Below, piece after piece: positions 1,895-14,244 of a stretch of 14,244 nt of DNA. Within the stretch, counting starts at the first letter, position 1; each line of letters opens with the position of its first letter. Origin of the DNA: a virus (taxonomy: Duplodnaviria > Heunggongvirae > Uroviricota > Caudoviricetes); the IMG/VR virus record IMGVR_UViG_2859777919_000005. One strand, 5' to 3'. Position numbers and translations under genes: made by a program. The notes under the pieces are model-generated. The model was not told where the DNA came from and ran no database searches. It saw only the letters and a list, made by a program, of their open reading frames with translations.

Positions 1895-1909
1895 GGTAAT
1901 GACTCCAAC

Positions 1910-2413
1910 TTATTGATAGTGTTTTATGTTCAGATAATGCCCGATGACTTTGTCATGCAGCTCCACCGATTTTGAGAACGACAGCGACTTCCGTCCCAGC
2001 CGTGCCAGGTGCTGCCTCAGATTCAGGTTATGCCGCTCAATTCGCTGCGTATATCGCTTGCTGATTACGTGCAGCTTTCCCTTCAGGCGGGATTCATACA
2101 GCGGCCAGCCATCCGTCATCCATATCACCACGTCAAAGGGTGACAGCAGGCTCATAAGACGCCCCAGCGTCGCCATAGTGCGTTCACCGAATACGTGCGC
2201 AACAACCGTCTTCCGGAGACTGTCATACGCGTAAAACAGCCAGCGCTGGCGCGATTTAGCCCCGACATAGCCCCACTGTTCGTCCATTTCCGCGCAGACG
2301 ATGACGTCACTGCCCGGCTGTATGCGCGAGGTTACCGACTGCGGCCTGAGTTTTTTAAGTGACGTAAAATCGTGTTGAGGCCAACGCCCATAATGCGTGC
2401 AGTTGCCCGGCAT
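1910..2413 (-). CDS. insB: IS1 InsB (167 aa; expressed as InsAB' by -1 frameshift)
   Basis: ORF ...[53 protein letters not shown]..., overlapping the insA 3' end in the -1 frame. Confidence 0.9.
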
Positions 2414-3681: not shown

Positions 3682-4343
3682 CCACTATTACCAAAGAGCG
3701 ACTGCAATGGCTGGCTAACATTTCTGGCCGCGATGATATTGACGATATAGACGGCGGTGAAATTCGTGAACTGGCGCTTATCGCTCTGGCATCACTGGAA
3801 GCAGAGCCTGTAGCGGAATGCATTGTTGAAGATGGGGGCATGTGTATTGACGGGTTCGGTGAGTATGTGGGTCACTCGCTGCCTGATGGAATGCATGAGC
3901 TTTATGCTGCCCCGCGAATGCGACAACCTGATGGATGGAAAGCCGTAGCTGTAGCGTGGAAGGTGACGTTTACTCAAGTTGACCAGGAATCTAATACGTT
4001 CACTGCTATATATTTTGACAAAGCGGAAGTTGAGTGTTGGGTACGACTGCATAAAGCATGTGATTTTCGGGCAGATATAACACCGCTTTACGCAGCGCCG
4101 GCAGTGCCGGTTGCAGTAAACGACGACATGGCTTACGCATTCCATCACGCACTGTCAGATTCATCGCTTGGCTCTGATGAAATCGAAGAAATTAAAACCG
4201 GTTTGCGTGCTGCCTTTGCCAACGTCACTATCCAACCAGAGCCGATAGTGCCGGATGAAATCGGGCCAAACGATAGTAATACGTTTGATTATGTTGATGG
4301 CTGGAACGCCTGCCGCGCTGCCATGCTTAAGGGAGATAAATAA
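3678..4343 (+). CDS. Hypothetical prophage early-region protein (221 aa) with duplicated LYAAP motif
   Basis: Start overlaps the HNH stop (ATGA), with SD AAGGGG upstream. Acidic protein containing two LYAAP-containing segments (MHELYAAPRMRQPDGWKAVAV and ITPLYAAPAVPVAV). No family recognised. Confidence 0.7.
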   Translation: MTTITKERLQWLANISGRDDIDDIDGGEIRELALIALASLEAEPVAECIVEDGGMCIDGFGEYVGHSLPDGMHELYAAPRMRQPDGWKAVAVAWKVTFTQVDQESNTFTAIYFDKAEVECWVRLHKACDFRADITPLYAAPAVPVAVNDDMAYAFHHALSDSSLGSDEIEEIKTGLRAAFANVTIQPEPIVPDEIGPNDSNTFDYVDGWNACRAAMLKGDK

Positions 4344-4708
4344 TGATTAATCGAACCAAACTGGAGCACATTCTCGAATATGCCAGGCAGCAGAAATGTA
4401 TTGGGCAACTTTGTAAAATTCCACCAGGAGATATGGTTGAAATCGTGGAAATGGCCATGCGTAAGGCTGGCAACTCTCCGGTAGCTCCGGCTGGCTGGAT
4501 AAGCTGTAGTGATGCAGTTCCTGCTGAATATTGCGATGTGATTCTTCTCGATGATCTCGGGAATGTATTCCCCGGTTCCTGGGATAAGGTTTTTTGCCCC
4601 ACTCGTGGCGGGAATAAGATGGCTTTTGTGGACAAAGACGGCGTTGAAGTAGAGAGCTCAACTCACTGGATGCCGCTACCGGAACCACCGCAGGAGGTGA
4701 ATCAATGA
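4343..4708 (+). CDS. DUF551-family prophage protein (121 aa)
   Basis: Start overlaps the upstream stop (TAATG), with SD AAGGGAGA. The C-terminal ...THWMPLPEPPQE matches the W-x-PLP-x-PP tail I recall for DUF551 proteins of enterobacterial prophages. Confidence 0.7.
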   Translation: MINRTKLEHILEYARQQKCIGQLCKIPPGDMVEIVEMAMRKAGNSPVAPAGWISCSDAVPAEYCDVILLDDLGNVFPGSWDKVFCPTRGGNKMAFVDKDGVEVESSTHWMPLPEPPQEVNQ

Positions 4709-4824: not shown

Positions 4825-5162
4825 GAAGGAAACAAAACAGAAACAGCAATTGCCGTTACCTGTTGTTACCATGGCAAGTAAACGTATCTCAGGCGAGCGC
4901 ATTGCGCCGTTCTGACGCAGATAAACTAGCCTGGATAGATGGTGCTGGCAATAAAAAATAGCGTTTTCTTATCGGTGTCGGTAAGATTGCTGCGGGTGCT
5001 TGAGGCTGTCTGCCTCGGGTATGTCACTGTAAGGCAGACAGAGAAAAGCCCCAGTTAACATTACGCGTCCTGCAAGACGCTTAACATTAATCTGAGGCCC
5101 AATCTATGTCTCACAAATGTAGGTTAGCCTCTTACGTGCCGAAAGGCAAGGAGAAGCAGGCT

Positions 5163-5318
5163 ATGAAGCAGCAAAAGGCGATGTTAATCGCCCTGATCGT
5201 CATCTGTTTAACCGTCATTGTGACGGCACTGGTAACGAGGAAAGACCTCTGCGAGGTACGAATCCGAATCGGCCAGACGGAGGTCGCTGTTTTCGTAGAC
5301 TACGAATCTAGAGAGTAA
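5163..5318 (+). CDS. hok: Hok/Gef-family type I toxin (51 aa)
   Basis: MKQQKAMLIALIVICLTVIVTALVTRKDLCEVRIRIGQTEVAVFVDYESRE has an N-terminal transmembrane helix and the conserved TRKDLCEV...GQTEVAVF core. It is closest to HokD/RelF and HokC/Gef as I remember them. The ORF-track extension to 5106 is in frame but probably not the start; SD AAGGAGAAG precedes the ATG at 5163. Confidence 0.85.
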   Translation: MKQQKAMLIALIVICLTVIVTALVTRKDLCEVRIRIGQTEVAVFVDYESRE

Positions 5319-5380
5319 GAGTGACCAGGCGGGAGAGTAATCTCCCGCCACCTTTGATGTGTCAGGCATCCTCAACGCAC

Positions 5381-5410
5381 CCGCACTTAACCCGTTTCGG
5401 CGGTTTTTTT
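5381..5410 (+). terminator. Probable 3' end/terminator of the hok mRNA (abutted by IS1)
   Basis: GC-rich segment CCGCACTTAACCCGTTTCGGCGG followed by T7 at 5404-5410. The stem is imperfect. Preceded by a perfect 9-bp hairpin GGCGGGAGA-GTAA-TCTCCCGCC (5328-5349) right after the hok stop. Confidence 0.4.
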
Positions 5411-5425
5411 GGTAATGACTCCAAC

Positions 5426-5928
5426 TTATTGATAGTGTTTTATGTTCAGATAATGCCCGATGACTTTGTCATGCAGCTCCACCGATTTTGAGAACGACAG
5501 CGACTTCCGTCCCAGCCGTGCCAGGTGCTGCCTCAGATTCAGGTTATGCCGCTCAATTCGCTGCGTATATCGCTTGCTGATTACGTGCAGCTTTCCCTTC
5601 AGGCGGGATTCATACAGCGGCCAGCCATCCGTCATCCATATCACCACGTCAAAGGGTGACAGCAGGCTCATAAGACGCCCCAGCGTCGCCATAGTGCGTT
5701 CACCGAATACGTGCGCAACAACCGTCTTCCGGAGACTGTCATACGCGTAAAACAGCCAGCGCTGGCGCGATTTAGCCCGACATAGCCCCACTGTTCGTCC
5801 ATTTCCGCGCAGACGATGACGTCACTGCCCGGCTGTATGCGCGAGGTTACCGACTGCGGCCTGAGTTTTTTAAGTGACGTAAAATCGTGTTGAGGCCAAC
5901 GCCCATAATGCGTGCAGTTGCCCGGCAT
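5426..5928 (-). pseudogene. insB: IS1 insB, frameshifted (copy 2)
   Basis: The InsB reading frame is split into two overlapping ORFs (5426-5791 and 5668-5928) by the 1-bp deletion. Confidence 0.8.
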
Positions 5929-6122
5929 CCAACGCCATTCATGGCCATATCAATGATTTTCTGGTGCGTACCGGGTTGGGAAGCGGTGTAAGTGAACTGC
6001 AGTTGCCATGTTTTACGGCAGTGAGAGCAGAGATAGCGCTGATGTCCGGCAGTGCTTTTGCCGTTACGCACCACCCCGTCAGTAGCTGAACAGGAGGGAC
6101 AGCTGATAGAAACAGAAGCCAC
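5847..6122 (-). CDS. insA: IS1 InsA (91 aa), copy 2
   Basis: Identical protein to copy 1 insA. Confidence 0.85.
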
Positions 6123-6283
6123 TGGAGCACCTCAAAAACACGATCATACACTAAATCAGTAAGTTGGCAGCATCACCTTTTGTCTCTATGTTGATATAAC
6201 CGTTTGTACTTATAAACCTTGAGGTAGCCTGAGTTTAACGGACACTCCTTCCTGAAATAGAATGGCATCAGAAGGAGCTAATA

Positions 6284-6586
6284 ATGAGCAGAAAAACCCA
6301 ACGTTACTCTAAAGAGTTCAAAGCCGAAGCTGTCAGAACGGTTCTTGAAAATCAACTTTCGATCAGTGAAGGCGCTTCCCGATTATCTCTTCCTGAAGGC
6401 ACTTTAGGACAATGGGTTACCGCCGCCAGAAAAGGGCTCGGTACTCCTGGTTCCCGCACGGTGGCTGAACTGGAATCTGAAATTCTGCAACTGCGTAAGG
6501 CGTTAAATGAAGCTCGCCTTGAGCGAGATATATTAAAAAAAGCAACAGCGTATTTTGCACAGGAGTCGCTGAAAAATACGCGTTAA
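6284..6586 (+). CDS. IS600 OrfA (100 aa), copy 2
   Basis: Full-length OrfA; differs from copy 1 at one residue (L versus P in RTVLENQ). Confidence 0.75.
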   Translation: MSRKTQRYSKEFKAEAVRTVLENQLSISEGASRLSLPEGTLGQWVTAARKGLGTPGSRTVAELESEILQLRKALNEARLERDILKKATAYFAQESLKNTR

Positions 6587-6623
6587 TCGAACAATGGCGA
6601 CAACAATTTCCCATTGAAGCGAT

Positions 6624-7438
6624 GTGTCAGGTATTTGGTGTATCCAGGGCGGTTATTACAACTGGGTACAGCATGAACCCTCAGACAGAAAACAAAGTGA
6701 TGAGCGGCTAAAACTGGAGATTAAGGTGGCACATATCCGCACTCGCGAAACATATGGAACCCGGCGGCTCCAGACGGAGCTGGCAGAGAATGGCATCATC
6801 GTTGGTCGTGACCGACTGGCACGTCTTCGTAAGGAGCTAAGGCTACGCTGTAAGCAGAAACGCAAGTTCAGAGCGACTACGAACTCGAACCACAATCTGC
6901 CAGTTGCGCCAAATCTGCTGAACCAGACGTTCGCTCCTACAGCACCAAATCAGGTCTGGGTGGCGGACCTGACGTATGTTGCCACACAGGAGGGATGGTT
7001 GTACCTCGCTGGCATCAAAGATGTTTATACGTGCGAAATTGTCGGCTACGCCATGGAGAGCGCATGACAAAAGAGCTGACAGGTAAAGCCCTGTTTATGG
7101 CGCTCAGGAGCCAGCGCCCACCTGCCGGGCTAATCCACCACTCTGATCGAGGTTCACAGTACTGCGCATACGATTACCGGGTCATACAGGAGCAGTCTGG
7201 TCTGAAAACATCAATGTCGCGTAAAGGTAACTGTTACGACAACGCTCCGATGGAAAGCTTCTGGGGAACGCTGAAAAATGAGAGCCTGAGCCACTATCGT
7301 TTTAATAACCGGGATGAAGCCATCTCAGTAATACGGGAATACATTGAGATTTTCTACAATCGTCAGCGTCGTCACTCTCGTCTGGGGAATATCTCCCCGG
7401 CAGCCTTCAGGGAAAAATATCATCAGATGGCTGCTTAA
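6624..7438 (+). pseudogene. IS600 orfB, frameshifted (copy 2)
   Basis: OrfB sequence is split across two overlapping ORFs (6624-7067 and 6995-7438). Confidence 0.8.
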
Positions 7439-7531
7439 AAAAAGAACAAATGGTAGTGTCCGCTATTGCCAGTACACCTCACACTCTATCCAACAAACCA
7501 CCCACAGTTAATCGGAATAAAAGCAGAGTGC

Positions 7532-7604
7532 TTATGAATGATCGCACGCCCGAAGGTTAGTATTTCTGCACAGCAATTTTGCAAAAAAAGGCGATCATTC
7601 ATAA
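7532..7604. repeat. Perfect 14-bp inverted repeat (TTATGAATGATCGC / GCGATCATTCATAA) with 45-bp spacer
   Basis: Read directly: arms at 7532-7545 and 7591-7604. The spacer contains the palindrome TTTTGCAAAA. Lies on the 3' side of the tRNA array. Confidence 0.6.
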
Positions 7605-7611
7605 CTTAAAC

Positions 7612-7657
7612 GTCTTTCAGTCACTCCGGGATTTCCCATCATCGCAGACTGAAAGAC
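7612..7657. repeat. Perfect 11-bp inverted repeat (GTCTTTCAGTC / GACTGAAAGAC) with 24-bp spacer
   Basis: Read directly: arms at 7612-7622 and 7647-7657, 6 nt beyond the 3' end of tRNA-Gly on the transcribed (minus) strand. Could form a processing or termination hairpin. Confidence 0.6.
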
Positions 7658-7663
7658 TCTGAC

Positions 7664-7738
<75 letters not shown>

Positions 7739-7741
7739 ATA

Positions 7742-7817
<76 letters not shown>

Positions 7818-7819
7818 GC

Positions 7820-7896
7820 TGGCCCACCACCGAGGACTCGAACCTCGCACCGTCAACTTAGAAGGTTGATGCTCTATCCGGATGAGCTAGTGGTGG
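7820..7896 (-). tRNA. tRNA-Arg (anticodon UCU), argN-like
   Basis: Reverse complement CCACCACTAGCTCATCCGGATAGAGCATCAACCTTCTAAGTTGACGGTGCGAGGTTCGAGTCCTCGGTGGTGGGCCA; acceptor CCACCAC/GTGGTGG, anticodon stem TCAAC/GTTGA, loop CTTCTAA, T stem CGAGG/CCTCG, encoded CCA. The unusual C1:G72 start makes the exact 5' boundary less certain. Confidence 0.8.
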
Positions 7897-7897
7897 T

Positions 7898-7974
7898 TGG
7901 TGGCCCTTGCTGGACTTGAACCAGCGACCTGGCGATTATGAGTCGCTCGCTCTGACCAACTGAGCTAAAGGGCC
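7898..7974 (-). tRNA. tRNA with CAU anticodon, ileX/ileZ-like (Ile2, lysidine-dependent) or Met
   Basis: Reverse complement GGCCCTTTAGCTCAGTTGGTCAGAGCGAGCGACTCATAATCGCCAGGTCGCTGGTTCAAGTCCAGCAAGGGCCACCA; anticodon loop CTCATAA. Overall close to E. coli ileX as I recall it, hence probably an AUA-reading tRNA-Ile2. Confidence 0.8.
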
Positions 7975-8062
7975 GGAGGCAGAATAATAACCATATGTCA
8001 TCACATCTGCAAACTCATCTGACCACCAGCACGTTTAACGTCCTGTGCCGTTTTTCAGGTAT

Positions 8063-8084
8063 AAAAAAACCCGCATAAAGCGGG
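8063..8084 (-). terminator. Rho-independent terminator downstream of the Q-like gene (tR'-like)
   Basis: On the minus strand: GC hairpin GCGGG-TTTAT-CCCGC (plus coordinates 8070-8084) followed by U7 (complement of A7 at 8063-8069). It lies about 80 nt downstream of the Q-like stop and about 90 nt upstream of the tRNA array, the position of tR' in lambdoid late operons. Confidence 0.7.
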
Positions 8085-8163
8085 CTCTTTCAAATGTCCA
8101 TGTCTGCTATTCGCCTCGCGGTACAGCTTTGCGAAGCGTACAAGAATTGAAGCAGTTTTTACG

Positions 8164-8718
8164 TCAAAAAGCAATAACTTTTTTCTCTATACCAAAAGCC
8201 ATAACCATTGGTTTGTACAAAATAAATTCTGCCACCTTTAGCCAATGCTCAATGCGTCTTTCACAGGTTCTTAAACTCCATTTCGGGTGTGCATCATTCA
8301 GCAGTTCAGCCATTTTGCGTTTGGTCATCCCCCGCCCCTCATACCGTTGCCGAAGGACGCTAATCAATCCTGGATGCTCTGCCAGCACCTCACTTATGAC
8401 CCGATCAATACATAACGCCTCTGCATCAGTACAATGCGCCAGCCAGCTCTTTTGCTTACCGTTAATCATATCCCGCAAAAAAGCCTCAAGTTCAGACTTG
8501 TTCAGACCTGCTTTTTTCATCCTCCGGAGCGCCTCGTTAATTGCCGTTTTTGTCAGCTTTTTAGAGGTCAACATCAGGTTAAACATATTCCCCGTCTTAC
8601 CGCCACCAATATACGACCAGCGCCCCCACATACGTAGTTTTCCCTGAATCCAGACACTTTCCAGCGTGGTGAGACGAAGGTGTTCTCCGCTTTTTCCTGT
8701 ATTCGTTGGGTAAATCAT
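8164..8718 (-). CDS. Probable late-gene antiterminator Q (184 aa)
   Basis: Start chosen at ATG 8716-8718 (SD AAGGAGGG 8 nt upstream; ATGA overlap with the upstream gene's stop) rather than the longer ORF-track start. Assignment rests mainly on position: last gene of a nin-like block, followed by an intrinsic terminator and phage tRNAs. No catalytic motif recognised; the family is not verified. Confidence 0.55.
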   Translation of the reverse strand: MIYPTNTGKSGEHLRLTTLESVWIQGKLRMWGRWSYIGGGKTGNMFNLMLTSKKLTKTAINEALRRMKKAGLNKSELEAFLRDMINGKQKSWLAHCTDAEALCIDRVISEVLAEHPGLISVLRQRYEGRGMTKRKMAELLNDAHPKWSLRTCERRIEHWLKVAEFILYKPMVMAFGIEKKVIAF

Positions 8719-9005
8719 AAATATCCCTCCTTTCTCCAGATTTCTTGTGTGCGAAAAACACCTTCTGCATGCATCAGGCGTAATTCTTCTTTGGTGTAAT
8801 CGCTGGTTTTTACCCGCCCGTCGATTAAATCGTGGCACGAGCTACAGGCAATCGCTGCCTGCATATCGTGTGGCTTTATCGCTGTTCCGCACGTTCCCGC
8901 CAGTCGGTAATGCGCCAGCACAGACGTTTCCGGATCGTGATTGCAGTAGCCAGGAATTCTGACGGTGCACATCTGCCCCCGCGCCGCTTTACGTAAATCC
9001 ACCAT
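8715..9005 (-). CDS. DUF1364 (YbcO-like) nin-region protein (96 aa)
   Basis: MVDLRKAARGQMCTVRIPGYCNHDPETSVLAHYRLAGTCGTAIKPHDMQAAIACSSCHDLIDGR... with the Cys/His pattern I recall for YbcO of the DLP12 nin region. Start overlaps the upstream stop (TAATG). Confidence 0.7.
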   Translation of the reverse strand: MVDLRKAARGQMCTVRIPGYCNHDPETSVLAHYRLAGTCGTAIKPHDMQAAIACSSCHDLIDGRVKTSDYTKEELRLMHAEGVFRTQEIWRKEGYL

Positions 9006-11739: not shown

Positions 11740-11803
11740 TGAGGTAGCCTGAGTTTAACGGACACTCCTTCCTGAAATAGAATGGCATCAGAAGGAGCTA
11801 ATA

Positions 11804-12136
11804 ATGAGCAGAAAAACCCAACGTTACTCTAAAGAGTTCAAAGCCGAAGCTGTCAGAACGGTTCTTGAAAATCAACTTTCGATCAGTGAAGGCGCTTCCC
11901 GATTATCTCTTCCTGAAGGCACTTTAGGACAATGGGTTACCGCCGCCAGAAAAGGGCTCGGTACTCCTGGTTCCCGCACGGTGGCTGAACTGGAATCTGA
12001 AATTCTGCAACTGCGTAAGGCGTTAAATGAAGCTCGCCTTGAGCGAGATATATTAAAAAAAGCAACAGCGTATTTTGCACAGGAGTCGCTGAAAATACGC
12101 GTTAATCGAACAATGGCGACAACAATTTCCCATTGA
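11804..12136 (+). pseudogene. IS600 orfA with frameshifted 3' end (copy 4)
   Basis: 110-aa ORF: OrfA residues 1-96, then a frameshifted tail IRVNRTMATTISH. Confidence 0.65.
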
Positions 12137-12142
12137 AGCGAT

Positions 12143-12957
12143 GTGTCAGGTATTTGGTGTATCCGGGGCGGTTATTACAACTGGGTACAGCATGAACCCT
12201 CAGACAGAAAACAAAGTGATGAGCGGCTAAAACTGGAGATTAAGGTGGCACATATCCGCACTCGCGAAACATATGGAACCCGGCGGCTCCAGACGGAGCT
12301 GGCAGAGAATGGCATCATCGTTGGTCGTGACCGACTGGCACGTCTTCGTAAGGAGCTAAGGCTACGCTGTAAGCAGAAACGCAAGTTCAGAGCGACTACG
12401 AACTCGAACCACAATCTGCCAGTTGCGCCAAATCTGCTGAACCAGACGTTCGCTCCTACAGCACCAAATCAGGTCTGGGTGGCGGACCTGACGTATGTTG
12501 CCACACAGGAGGGATGGTTGTACCTCGCTGGCATCAAAGATGTTTATACGTGCGAAATTGTCGGCTACGCCATGGGAGAGCGCATGACAAAGAGCTGACA
12601 GGTAAAGCCCTGTTTATGGCGCTCAGGAGCCAGCGCCCACCTGCCGGGCTAATCCACCACTCTGATCGAGGTTCACAGTACTGCGCATACGATTACCGGG
12701 TCATACAGGAGCAGTCTGGTCTGAAAACATCAATGTCGCGTAAAGGTAACTGTTACGACAACGCTCCGATGGAAAGCTTCTGGGGAACGCTGAAAAATGA
12801 GAGCCTGAGCCACTATCGTTTTAATAACCGGGATGAAGCCATCTCAGTAATACGGGAATACATTGAGATTTTCTACAATCGTCAGCGTCGTCACTCTCGT
12901 CTGGGGAATATCTCCCCGGCAGCCTTCAGGGAAAAATATCATCAGATGGCTGCTTAA
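12143..12957 (+). pseudogene. IS600 orfB, frameshifted (copy 4)
   Basis: OrfB sequence is split across two overlapping ORFs (12143-12598 and 12514-12957). Confidence 0.8.
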
Positions 12958-13000
12958 AAAAAGAACAAATGGTAGTGTCCGCTATTGCCAGTACACCTCA

Positions 13001-14244
13001 GCCGTCTGGCGATACCCGGCGCATTCGGCTTTGGGTGTGCTTTTCTGCCTGAAGATGTTATCCGTTTTGACACTAAGAGTGATTTCCTGGCCTGGGTAAG
13101 GAATGCGCTGCCAGGTGAATATTCCGTTGCTGGCCCCTACGACATCATCATACCCGACACACGGTTTGAAGGGGTGCTCAGCATCCGGTGGACTGATGCA
13201 CGCCCTGAGACAACAGAACCGAGGTACAGAGCCAAATCCCTTACTTTTTACGGCATTAACGGCCCCATTTATCACACCCGCTACTGCTACTGGCCCATAT
13301 CCAGACTGACTGGCTGGGTGAAAATAAATATAACCACAGAAGATATTATTTACAGAATCGTGGCGAGCTCTGTCTGCAACAGATGGGGAGACCCTGACAT
13401 TGGCGGGCTGATTATTGCTGCGTACCAGGGAGAAGCTGACGGTGATAAAGTCATCAGACTTGTCAGGGGGCAGTCATACAGAGGCTCACGACTGGGACCG
13501 GTGGGGATTTCAGTGCCCAGTACTCCCACCGGAACGTATATAGCATCCCCACAATTTTCATTACGGGATGTTCAGAGCATTCATTACCGGGGTCATATAG
13601 CGCCCTGTCCGGGGTGCCGGATGCTCATGTCTCTGGCGCAATGCCCGGGCTTTTTATTCGCACATCGTGAGGAATGCACCGTGGAAATTAAAAAAATCAT
13701 TAATCCCCGTTATACCGAAAGTGGCGCAGTAGACTGTGACGTTTTTTTTGACGACAGGGACCAGGCAGTCCCCTACACAGCCACCGCTGATGATGTCGCA
13801 CCGACGGGTCAGCGAATCTGGCAGGAACTGCAAAGTGGCAAATGGGGTGAGATAGCCCCATTCACTGTGACACCAGAAATGCTGGAAGCGGCCAGAGAGG
13901 CCAGACGTCAGGGAATTGAAGCATGGCGCACAGAACAGGAGGCGAAGCCGTTCACGTTTGAATGGAACGGTCGTATCTGGAATGCTGGCCCCAACTCACT
14001 GGGCCGCCTTTATCCGGTGGTAATGGCTGCGAAATCCGACATTGTACGGGACGTGATGACGTGGGGTGATGCCGATAATCAGCAGGTGAAACAGTCGATG
14101 CCGGAACTGGAAGAACTGGCGGCAGCAATGGCTCAGGCACAGGTTGAGCGCAATGACGAGATTTATCGCCGTCAGCGGGAGCTGAAGGAAGAGCTGAATA
14201 GTCTGAAGGATTTGAATTCGGTTAGGAATTTTATCGTGGAATAA
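13001..14244 (+). pseudogene. C-terminal 414 codons of an unidentified protein, N-terminally truncated by IS600 copy 4
   Basis: Long open frame from the IS600 junction to TAA at 14242-14244. The N-terminal part is Cys/Gly-rich and looks beta-rich (...YDIIIPDTRFEGVLSIRWTDARPETTEPRYRAKSLTFYGINGPIYHTRYCYWPISRLTGWVKINITTEDIIYRIV...); the last 60 aa are a charged, coiled-coil-like tail (...MPELEELAAAMAQAQVERNDEIYRRQRELKEELNSLKDL...). No family recognised; a phage tail-fibre distal domain is one guess. Confidence 0.6.

Follow-up and report, generated by a model that had tools for sequence, protein, structure and literature searches.

The window (the whole stretch of 14,244 nucleotides that was analysed) contains on its minus strand a Q-type late antiterminator gene followed by a tR'-like hairpin, a sigma-70 promoter-like site and an array of tRNA genes whose last member is tRNA-Gly(UCC) (Table 1). 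A counterpart of the promoter-like site, likewise a consensus match only, was found in phage vB_EcoS-689R5 (locus L001) as TTGCAA-17-TATTAT. The element described here begins at the base directly after the CCA end of tRNA-Gly and is truncated on its other side by an IS600 copy. The boundaries that the earlier note had given to this segment are correct, with tRNA-Gly ending at 7664 and the IS600 copy at 7481. One further promoter-like match on the minus strand, TCGGCA-16-TATAAT at 7723-7750 (10 of 12 positions), is probably coincidental; its -10 hexamer is the D-loop of tRNA-Gly and it would start transcription inside that tRNA.

The prophage in the window is defective and IS-ridden, and it is heavily rearranged in a Shigella-like manner. 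Four IS600 copies (492-1755 and 9894 to about 11155 on the minus strand, 6220-7481 and 11740 to about 13002 on the plus strand) and two IS1 copies (about 1893-2660 and about 5409-6176) were observed within 14 kb. The long ORF is split into two overlapping 147-aa ORFs in the IS600 copies at 6220-7481 and 11740-13002 and forms a single ORF of 270-272 aa in the other two, which fits a 1-nt difference near 7056. Also present in the window, at 4994-5318 on the plus strand, is a hok/sok toxin-antitoxin locus, where sok (RF01794) scored 118 bits and a 70-aa Hok/Gef protein is encoded at 5106-5318.

Table 1. Features of the locus and parts of the conserved RNA. Positions are those of the window except in the last line, where they are those of the HK639 locus.
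Feature	Position	Strand	Basis and remarks
Q-type late antiterminator gene	8164..8838	-	Pfam DUF1133 3.8e-107, Phage_antitermQ 1.7e-6
tR'-like hairpin GCCCGC-UUUAU-GCGGG + U7	8063..8086	-	Downstream of Q gene; read from the sequence, not listed by the consensus scan
Sigma-70 promoter-like site TTTGCA-18-TATTAT	7984..8013	-	Immediately upstream of tRNA-Met; consensus match only
tRNA array Met(CAU)-Arg(UCU)-Thr(UGU)-Gly(UCC)	7664..7974	-	ARAGORN and Rfam
P1 hairpin	7612..7657	-	Outer helix 7647-7657 with 7612-7622 (11-bp repeat); RNAalifold and pair counts
P1 asymmetric internal loop, conserved	7638-7646 (UGCGAUGAU) and 7623-7627 (GGAGU)	-	
P1 inner stem-loop GGG-AAAU-CCC	7628-7637	-	
P1-P2 linker, single-stranded, 7 nt, variable	7605..7611	-	Columns 52-59 of alignment A1 vary freely
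P2 domain	7532..7604	-	Lower helix 7591-7604 with 7532-7545 (14-bp repeat); encloses P2a and P2b
P2a inner hairpin UUUUUGCA / UGCAGAAA	7563..7587	-	9-nt loop AAAUUGCUG nearly invariant
P2b short hairpin CC-UUCG-GG (UUYG loop)	7550..7556	-	RNAalifold; only 2 pairs, weak support
P3 hairpin, truncated	7482..7531	-	Outer helix GCACUCU(G) 7524-7531 with (U)AGAGUG 7482-7488
P3b inner helix	7506-7516 with 7489-7499	-	
P3 invariant G/U-rich stretch GUGGGUGGUUUGUUGGA	7489-7505	-	
IS600 copy truncating the element	6220..7481	+	Ends set against the three further IS600 copies of the window
STnc100 and isrJ-like RNA in HK639 (L002)	3706-3911 and 4338-4410	-	Unannotated in the GenBank record

The earlier note had reported two perfect inverted repeats in the segment, and both were recovered with matching sequences: arms of 14 nt separated by a 45-nt spacer, and arms of 11 nt separated by a 24-nt spacer. 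Its view that such repeats are unlikely to arise by chance also holds, as a repeat of at least 14 nt occurred in none of 5000 dinucleotide-preserving shuffles of 7482-7663 and one of at least 11 nt in 17. We found that the two repeats are the main helices, P2 and P1 respectively, of an RNA with three hairpins, and that the minus strand of 7482-7663 is the first 182 nt of this conserved structured RNA of about 190 bases (P1-P2-P3). The consensus fold, with 54 pairs in 7 helices, was obtained with RNAalifold from alignment A1, which consists of 34 diverged sequences in the minus-strand orientation, reduced from about 160 loci of IMG/VR and of one genome per species. Minus-strand folding, a check that the earlier note had proposed, gave the same three hairpins from the window's own 182 nt. 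An intact copy folded on the minus strand has an MFE of -83.2 kcal/mol (z -5.7, the MFE structure being the centroid) while the plus strand reaches -65.1.

The outer helix of P1 was observed to be 97.7% paired, and in two of its pairs both partners differ (U-A replaced by C-G, and C-G by U-A); an A-U/G-U switch is also present. More compensatory variants of P1 are found outside the alignment, as GGCC/GGCC in a Yokenella locus (L170) and as a C-G pair in L005. The lower helix of P2 reaches 15-16 bp in relatives, and of its 15 aligned pairs, which are 97% paired, four are changed on both sides. In L148 the interior of P2 is deleted, yet a G-U-rich stem of 15 bp is kept. The helix of P2a is 99.3% paired, with one pair occurring as U-A, U-G and C-G, and its 3' arm has the consensus UGYRRAAA across A1 opposite UUUUUGCA. 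The palindrome TTTTGCAAAA, which the earlier note had placed in the spacer of the 14-nt repeat, is present there; in the conserved fold it forms the 5' arm and the start of the loop of P2a, its first half being the 5' arm of the small inner hairpin TTTTTGCA/TGCAGAAA. A poly-U tract just 5' of P2a varies in length by 1-3 nt among close relatives.

A third helix, which was not part of the earlier description, pairs GCACTCT (7525-7531) with AGAGTG (7482-7487) and is truncated by the IS600 copy. This P3 hairpin adjoins P2 without a linker, and its complete outer helix reads GCACUCU/AGAGUGC; the final C is present in all intact copies and is here replaced by the end of the IS600. The outer helix of P3 is the best-supported helix of the RNA, since five of its eight pairs are changed on both sides and four types of arms were observed (CUCU/AGAG, UCUC/GAGG, CUCC/GGAG and CCUU/AAGG). 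P3b shows A-U/G-U switches that face an invariant 3' strand. A closing helix P0, between the 5' end and the region after P3, was predicted in L001; it was unsupported in the HK639-type lineage and was dropped.

Over the whole fold, 97.5% of the cells of the 34 sequences hold a standard pair, against 37-51% when the partners are slid by 1-3 columns. Thirteen pairs are changed on both sides, a number matched by 1 of 500 shuffles, and the cells changed on both sides number 98 against 34 expected, which no shuffle of the 500 matched. The number of independent covariation events is modest, because much of the covariation stems from two main lineages. The fold also has a strand: G-U pairs, which can form only in the minus-strand RNA, occupy 184 cells in 29 pairs, against 38 cells in 13 pairs for the A-C combinations that would read as G-U on the plus strand, so the minus strand is the RNA strand. 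A covariance model built from A1 gave a single match in the window, at 7481-7663 on the minus strand with 191 bits; its E-values are rough, and its effective sequence number is only 1.2.

These observations bear on a feature at the level of DNA, for which the earlier note had offered paired palindromic sites for a protein or a 73-bp MITE with 14-bp terminal repeats. The arms in the window copy are indeed perfect palindromic arms. However, arms that differ between lineages stay complementary through compensatory changes, and many pairs are G-U on one strand only, a strand asymmetry that is not expected of DNA palindromes; paired protein-binding sites are therefore disfavoured. A MITE fares no better, as the median is one copy per genome, the copies occupy one slot in the late leader throughout, no target-site duplication flanks the 73-bp unit and its arms co-vary. 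The dispersed copies that would mark such an element were looked for among the E. coli carriers, in which at most three places per genome were found, all in that same slot and none on plasmids. We consider a DNA-level feature to be very improbable.

The element was found in 536 of 5426 complete E. coli genomes, and all the matches are chromosomal with no annotation beneath them. Six enterobacterial genera are represented among its hosts, namely E. coli, Shigella flexneri (with two intact copies in one genome), Enterobacter hormaechei, Phytobacter ursingii, Yokenella regensburgei and Citrobacter sedlakii. Conservation in homologous prophages, for which the earlier note had asked, was seen in phage HK639, where the same segment has 75% identity and both repeats are kept via compensatory changes. 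A comparison with Stx phages had also been suggested; the segment is absent from Stx2a phages, in which only the IS600 part of the query matches. Phage phi467 (L003) is a Shiga-toxin phage with the order Q, stx, tRNAs, element, holin, where stxA and stxB (4850-6085, minus strand) lie upstream of tRNA-Thr, tRNA-Gly and the element.

The slot of the element in the lambdoid late region is constant, with the Q antiterminator or tRNA genes on one side and the lysis genes on the other, and its neighbours vary, with different Q types and different holin types around it. An intact tRNA-Gly(UCC) ends at most 12 nt before the element in 116 of 157 copies; a tRNA abuts it in 118, two of which are next to a tRNA other than Gly, and a 3' fragment of a tRNA precedes many of the remaining copies. 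It is well supported that the element is a non-coding RNA module of the lambdoid late leader that is linked to tRNA genes. The tRNA fragments that are common just upstream of the element could also be read in another way, with the element as a functionless relic of decayed tRNA genes or spacer whose copies are similar only through recent kinship of the prophages. P1 and the part of tRNA-Gly from the anticodon to the T-arm have the motifs GAUGAUG and CAG(C/U)C in common. In the chimeric locus L126 (about 1900-1960, plus strand) the P1 internal loop follows directly, at UGCGAUGAUGGG, on a 5' half of tRNA-Gly that runs as far as the anticodon stem. The common GAUGAUG heptamer suggests either recombination at microhomology or an old relationship between tRNA-Gly and P1. 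However, at about 25% divergence compensatory and wobble changes have kept the helices 97.5% paired, in contrast to freely varying linkers, and the element is retained across the six genera, so a relic is improbable.

Intact relatives are found in phages vB_EcoS-689R5, phi467, PhiR47_1 and 606R7 and in many E. coli prophages. An A/U-rich spacer and an intrinsic terminator follow the element in every intact relative examined, and in most of them the holin gene comes next. The terminator was observed 15-30 nt past P3 in each intact copy examined and in every lineage, and the holin lies within 100 nt of the end of the match (terminator included) in 87 of 157 copies. For example, L001 has the one extra base of P3, an A/U-rich spacer of about 30 nt and the terminator GCCCGC-UUUU-GCGGG-U5, with a class II holin gene about 70 nt after it. 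The 3' arm of the terminator was noticed to be GCGTTTTTTT and not GCGGGTTTTT in L169 (S. flexneri SFBU1023) and L167 (E. coli ECMA0423), which gives a weaker hairpin. HNH/homing endonuclease genes were also seen in the late leader, between tRNA-Asn and the element in L005 (2547-2972) and near the terminase genes in L001 (803-1153).

Compared with these relatives, IS600 has deprived the window copy of the final P3 base and of what would follow it, namely the spacer, the intrinsic terminator and the connection to the holin gene. The far flank of this IS600 copy is unrelated sequence adjoining IS1, and therefore an IS-mediated rearrangement and not a simple insertion lost the terminator and the lysis genes. 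The window copy is thus a truncated remnant. The role that the earlier note had considered for the repeats, a processing or termination structure on the minus-strand transcript just 3' of tRNA-Gly, is upheld as regards an RNA in the trailer of the tRNA operon, given the covariation, the excess of G-U and the conservation in homologous prophages. The termination part is not: GUUUAAG follows P1 and GCACUCU follows P2, so that neither hairpin has a U-tract after it, and the true terminator lies beyond the third helix in intact relatives. A consensus scan found no terminator-like site in the window between 7400 and 8250.

The three hairpins do not always occur together. P1 is missing from some copies, others combine P1 with a different P2 interior, and still others have P1-P2 and no P3; such separable, recombining modules argue against one obligatory three-hairpin unit. 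The late leader itself is modular in HK639, where the order is an isrJ-like RNA at pR'-tR', tRNA-Asn, the element with its terminator, STnc100 with its terminator, and the holin. In this phage STnc100 scored 52.6 bits, above the gathering score of 47, and the isrJ-like RNA 34.6 bits, which is below threshold. There are four terminators between Q and the holin of HK639. In both HK639 and L005, 400-700 nt with other modules and terminators lie between the element and the holin.

Covarying stems and invariant junction and loop nucleotides, with a terminator 15-30 nt downstream and then an operon, are also what a regulated attenuator would present, whether riboswitch-like or protein-dependent, that gates read-through from the tRNA promoter into the lysis genes. 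A candidate antiterminator pairing of GUGAGG with CCUCGC was noticed by eye; however, it occurs only in the HK639-type and not in the window-type lineage. There is also no match to a riboswitch of Rfam, and in lambdoid phages the Q-modified polymerase ignores terminators, which counts further against an attenuator. We therefore regard this reading as quite improbable.

No known family was found to account for the element. Searches of Rfam 15 with the window, an intact copy and HK639, at gathering and at permissive thresholds, matched the element to no family and returned only tRNA there; the families covered include AgvB, AsxR, STnc100, isrJ, Esr41, sok, riboswitches and ribozymes. Weak matches to istR, isrB and RsmY are confined to the terminator of HK639. 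The sequence of the P1 internal loop misses what we take to be the consensus cores of the K-turn, C/D-box, loop E and hammerhead-like motifs, and no Rfam model supports any of these. Likenesses to GcvB (the common GGUCUGCGAU and UUUGCAA) and to the RybB seed were judged to be coincidental or lineage-specific. Two small ORFs, one of 38 aa on the minus strand that starts from the P2 arm and one on the plus strand that is annotated as a 'hypothetical protein' in ON470583, were rejected because the frames are unconserved and are broken by differences of 1-3 nt in the length of the U-tract between near-identical copies. In HK639 the ATG is missing and the frame ends early.

The element is also distinct from the small RNAs described in prophage late regions. 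The probes and sequence of PasA/PasC (PMC8550237 table S6, figure S5) are unrelated to it and their orientation is opposite, and no copy was found in prophage PP2 of E2348/69, which holds PasA and PasD2. AgvB and AsxR are short, convergent and unrelated in sequence (PMC4104026), they gave no Rfam match here, and the supplements of Tree et al., searched for sequence strings, contained none. In addition, a search for literature on HK639 found no paper on its late leader.

Several known systems resemble the element in part. The closest functional precedent is 3'ETS(leuZ), the external transcribed spacer at the 3' end of the glyW-cysT-leuZ tRNA operon of E. coli, a tRNA trailer that acts in trans as a base-pairing sponge for sRNAs (Lalaouna et al. 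2015, as cited in PMC5286369). The element likewise lies directly 3' of the last tRNA. It is described there that 3'ETS(leuZ) is co-transcribed with the tRNAs and ends at the operon terminator, and the intact relatives of the element also end at a terminator. The element has no sequence relation to 3'ETS(leuZ); it is borne by phages, contains three covarying hairpins and, at about 230 nt, would far exceed 3'ETS(leuZ) in length.

STnc100/PasD (RF02076), which is the very next module after the element in HK639, has the same orientation as late transcription, lies between Q and the holin and has a terminator at its end, as the element does in intact relatives. These RNAs are about 170-200 nt long and are abundant, Hfq-associated sRNAs in lysogens (PMC8550237, with table S6; bioRxiv 10.64898/2026.05.13.724894). 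The element differs from STnc100 in sequence and fold, the covariance model of which misses it, and the link with tRNA is specific to the element. AgvB/AsxR and PasA/PasC similarly occupy the prophage 'moron' slot downstream of pR' and next to the holin but are only 51-85 nt long and convergent, that is, antisense to late transcription (PMC4104026; PMC8550237).

Two further groups of phage RNAs invite comparison. The species 1 and 2 RNAs of phage T4 (rnaC and rnaD) are structured, stable RNAs that are encoded with a tRNA cluster and processed from its transcript; they can be likened to the element by description, although they belong to a different phage group and lysis genes are not next to them. 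Lambda 6S RNA/StxS is a short non-coding RNA of pR'-tR' which ends at the terminator that Q overrides. It thus lies upstream of the tRNAs, whereas the element is found downstream of tR' and the tRNAs; the weak isrJ-like match of HK639 is at the position of lambda 6S/StxS.

We infer that the RNA of the element is the 3' trailer of the prophage tRNA operon and serves as an sRNA-like module of the late leader, and we hold this with about even confidence. The assignment as a 3' external transcribed spacer rests on the observed fold and its strand, on its conservation and on its place between the last tRNA and the terminator. In a lysogen, transcription of the RNA would begin at the promoter-like site that precedes tRNA-Met, and late in lytic growth at pR' under Q. 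An endonuclease cut beside the CCA end, which would mature the 3' end of the tRNA, would free the RNA from tRNA-Gly. The junction between tRNA-Gly and the element reads CCAG/UYA, which is close to what we take to be the preference of RNase E. With its other end at the terminator, the RNA would be stable, U-tailed and about 230 nt long, and its helices would protect it from degradation. Contacts would be made by the invariant segments that are unpaired or weakly paired: the internal loop of P1, the loop AAAUUGCUG of P2a and the G/U-rich strand of P3. Its most likely role would be base pairing with other RNAs, as an sRNA or as a sponge of the Hfq-binding type. The late leader of HK639 lends support by analogy, being a series of modules of this sort with the Hfq-associated STnc100 immediately downstream of the element. 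In the papers searched, no report of expression, end-mapping, Hfq binding or interactions was found for the RNA of this element.

On the trailer reading, the same fold would also form a structured 5' leader of the lysis mRNA in the Q-dependent late transcript. The main rival to a trailer with an sRNA-like role is a purely cis-acting element; the attenuator and the functionless relic are less likely. The cis element would provide processing sites for RNase III/RNase E or a 5' stabiliser, with no function in trans, and would serve to part the tRNAs from the lysis mRNA and to set holin mRNA levels. In favour of this reading are a position that is always upstream of the lysis cassette, 87 copies in which the holin starts less than 100 nt from the terminator of the element, the long helices of 11-16 bp and their asymmetric internal loop, and stems that are kept where the interior of P2 is replaced (L129 and L148). 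HK639 points in the same direction, for no promoter-like site was found by consensus scan between its tR' and the holin; independent transcription is therefore not general. However, a mere stabiliser would not need near-invariant loop and bulge sequences. A terminator stands between the element and the holin, and in HK639 and L005 the two are separated by 400-700 nt with other modules. We consider a purely cis role to be unlikely overall, though a serious candidate.

A bolder form of the trailer reading was also considered, in which the element represents a new family of phage regulatory RNAs at the ends of prophage tRNA operons, whose GGGUGGUUUGUUGG strand and P2a loop would target transcripts of the host or the phage, or would bind a protein. 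The invariant G/U-rich strand GGGUGGUUUGUUGG resembles the GcvB seed in composition. This proposal is tentative and we regard it as rather doubtful.

Lambdoid prophages are major carriers of virulence genes, and the RNAs AgvB, AsxR, StxS and PasD/STnc100 of their late leaders alter host regulation. What the element adds to this region is a structured RNA with good support, for which Rfam has no entry and none of the records examined an annotation. About 10% of complete E. coli genomes carry it, and it occurs in further enterobacteria as well. The copy in the window matters less in itself, being a truncated remnant in a defective prophage. The mode of expression of phage tRNA genes is still described as unknown (PMC8022706), and the element is a defined candidate for work on tRNA-linked regulatory RNAs in phages. 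On the bolder reading of a new RNA family, its action would connect tRNA supply and host physiology with lysis timing, and the RNA may also be expressed in the uninduced lysogens of about a tenth of E. coli strains.
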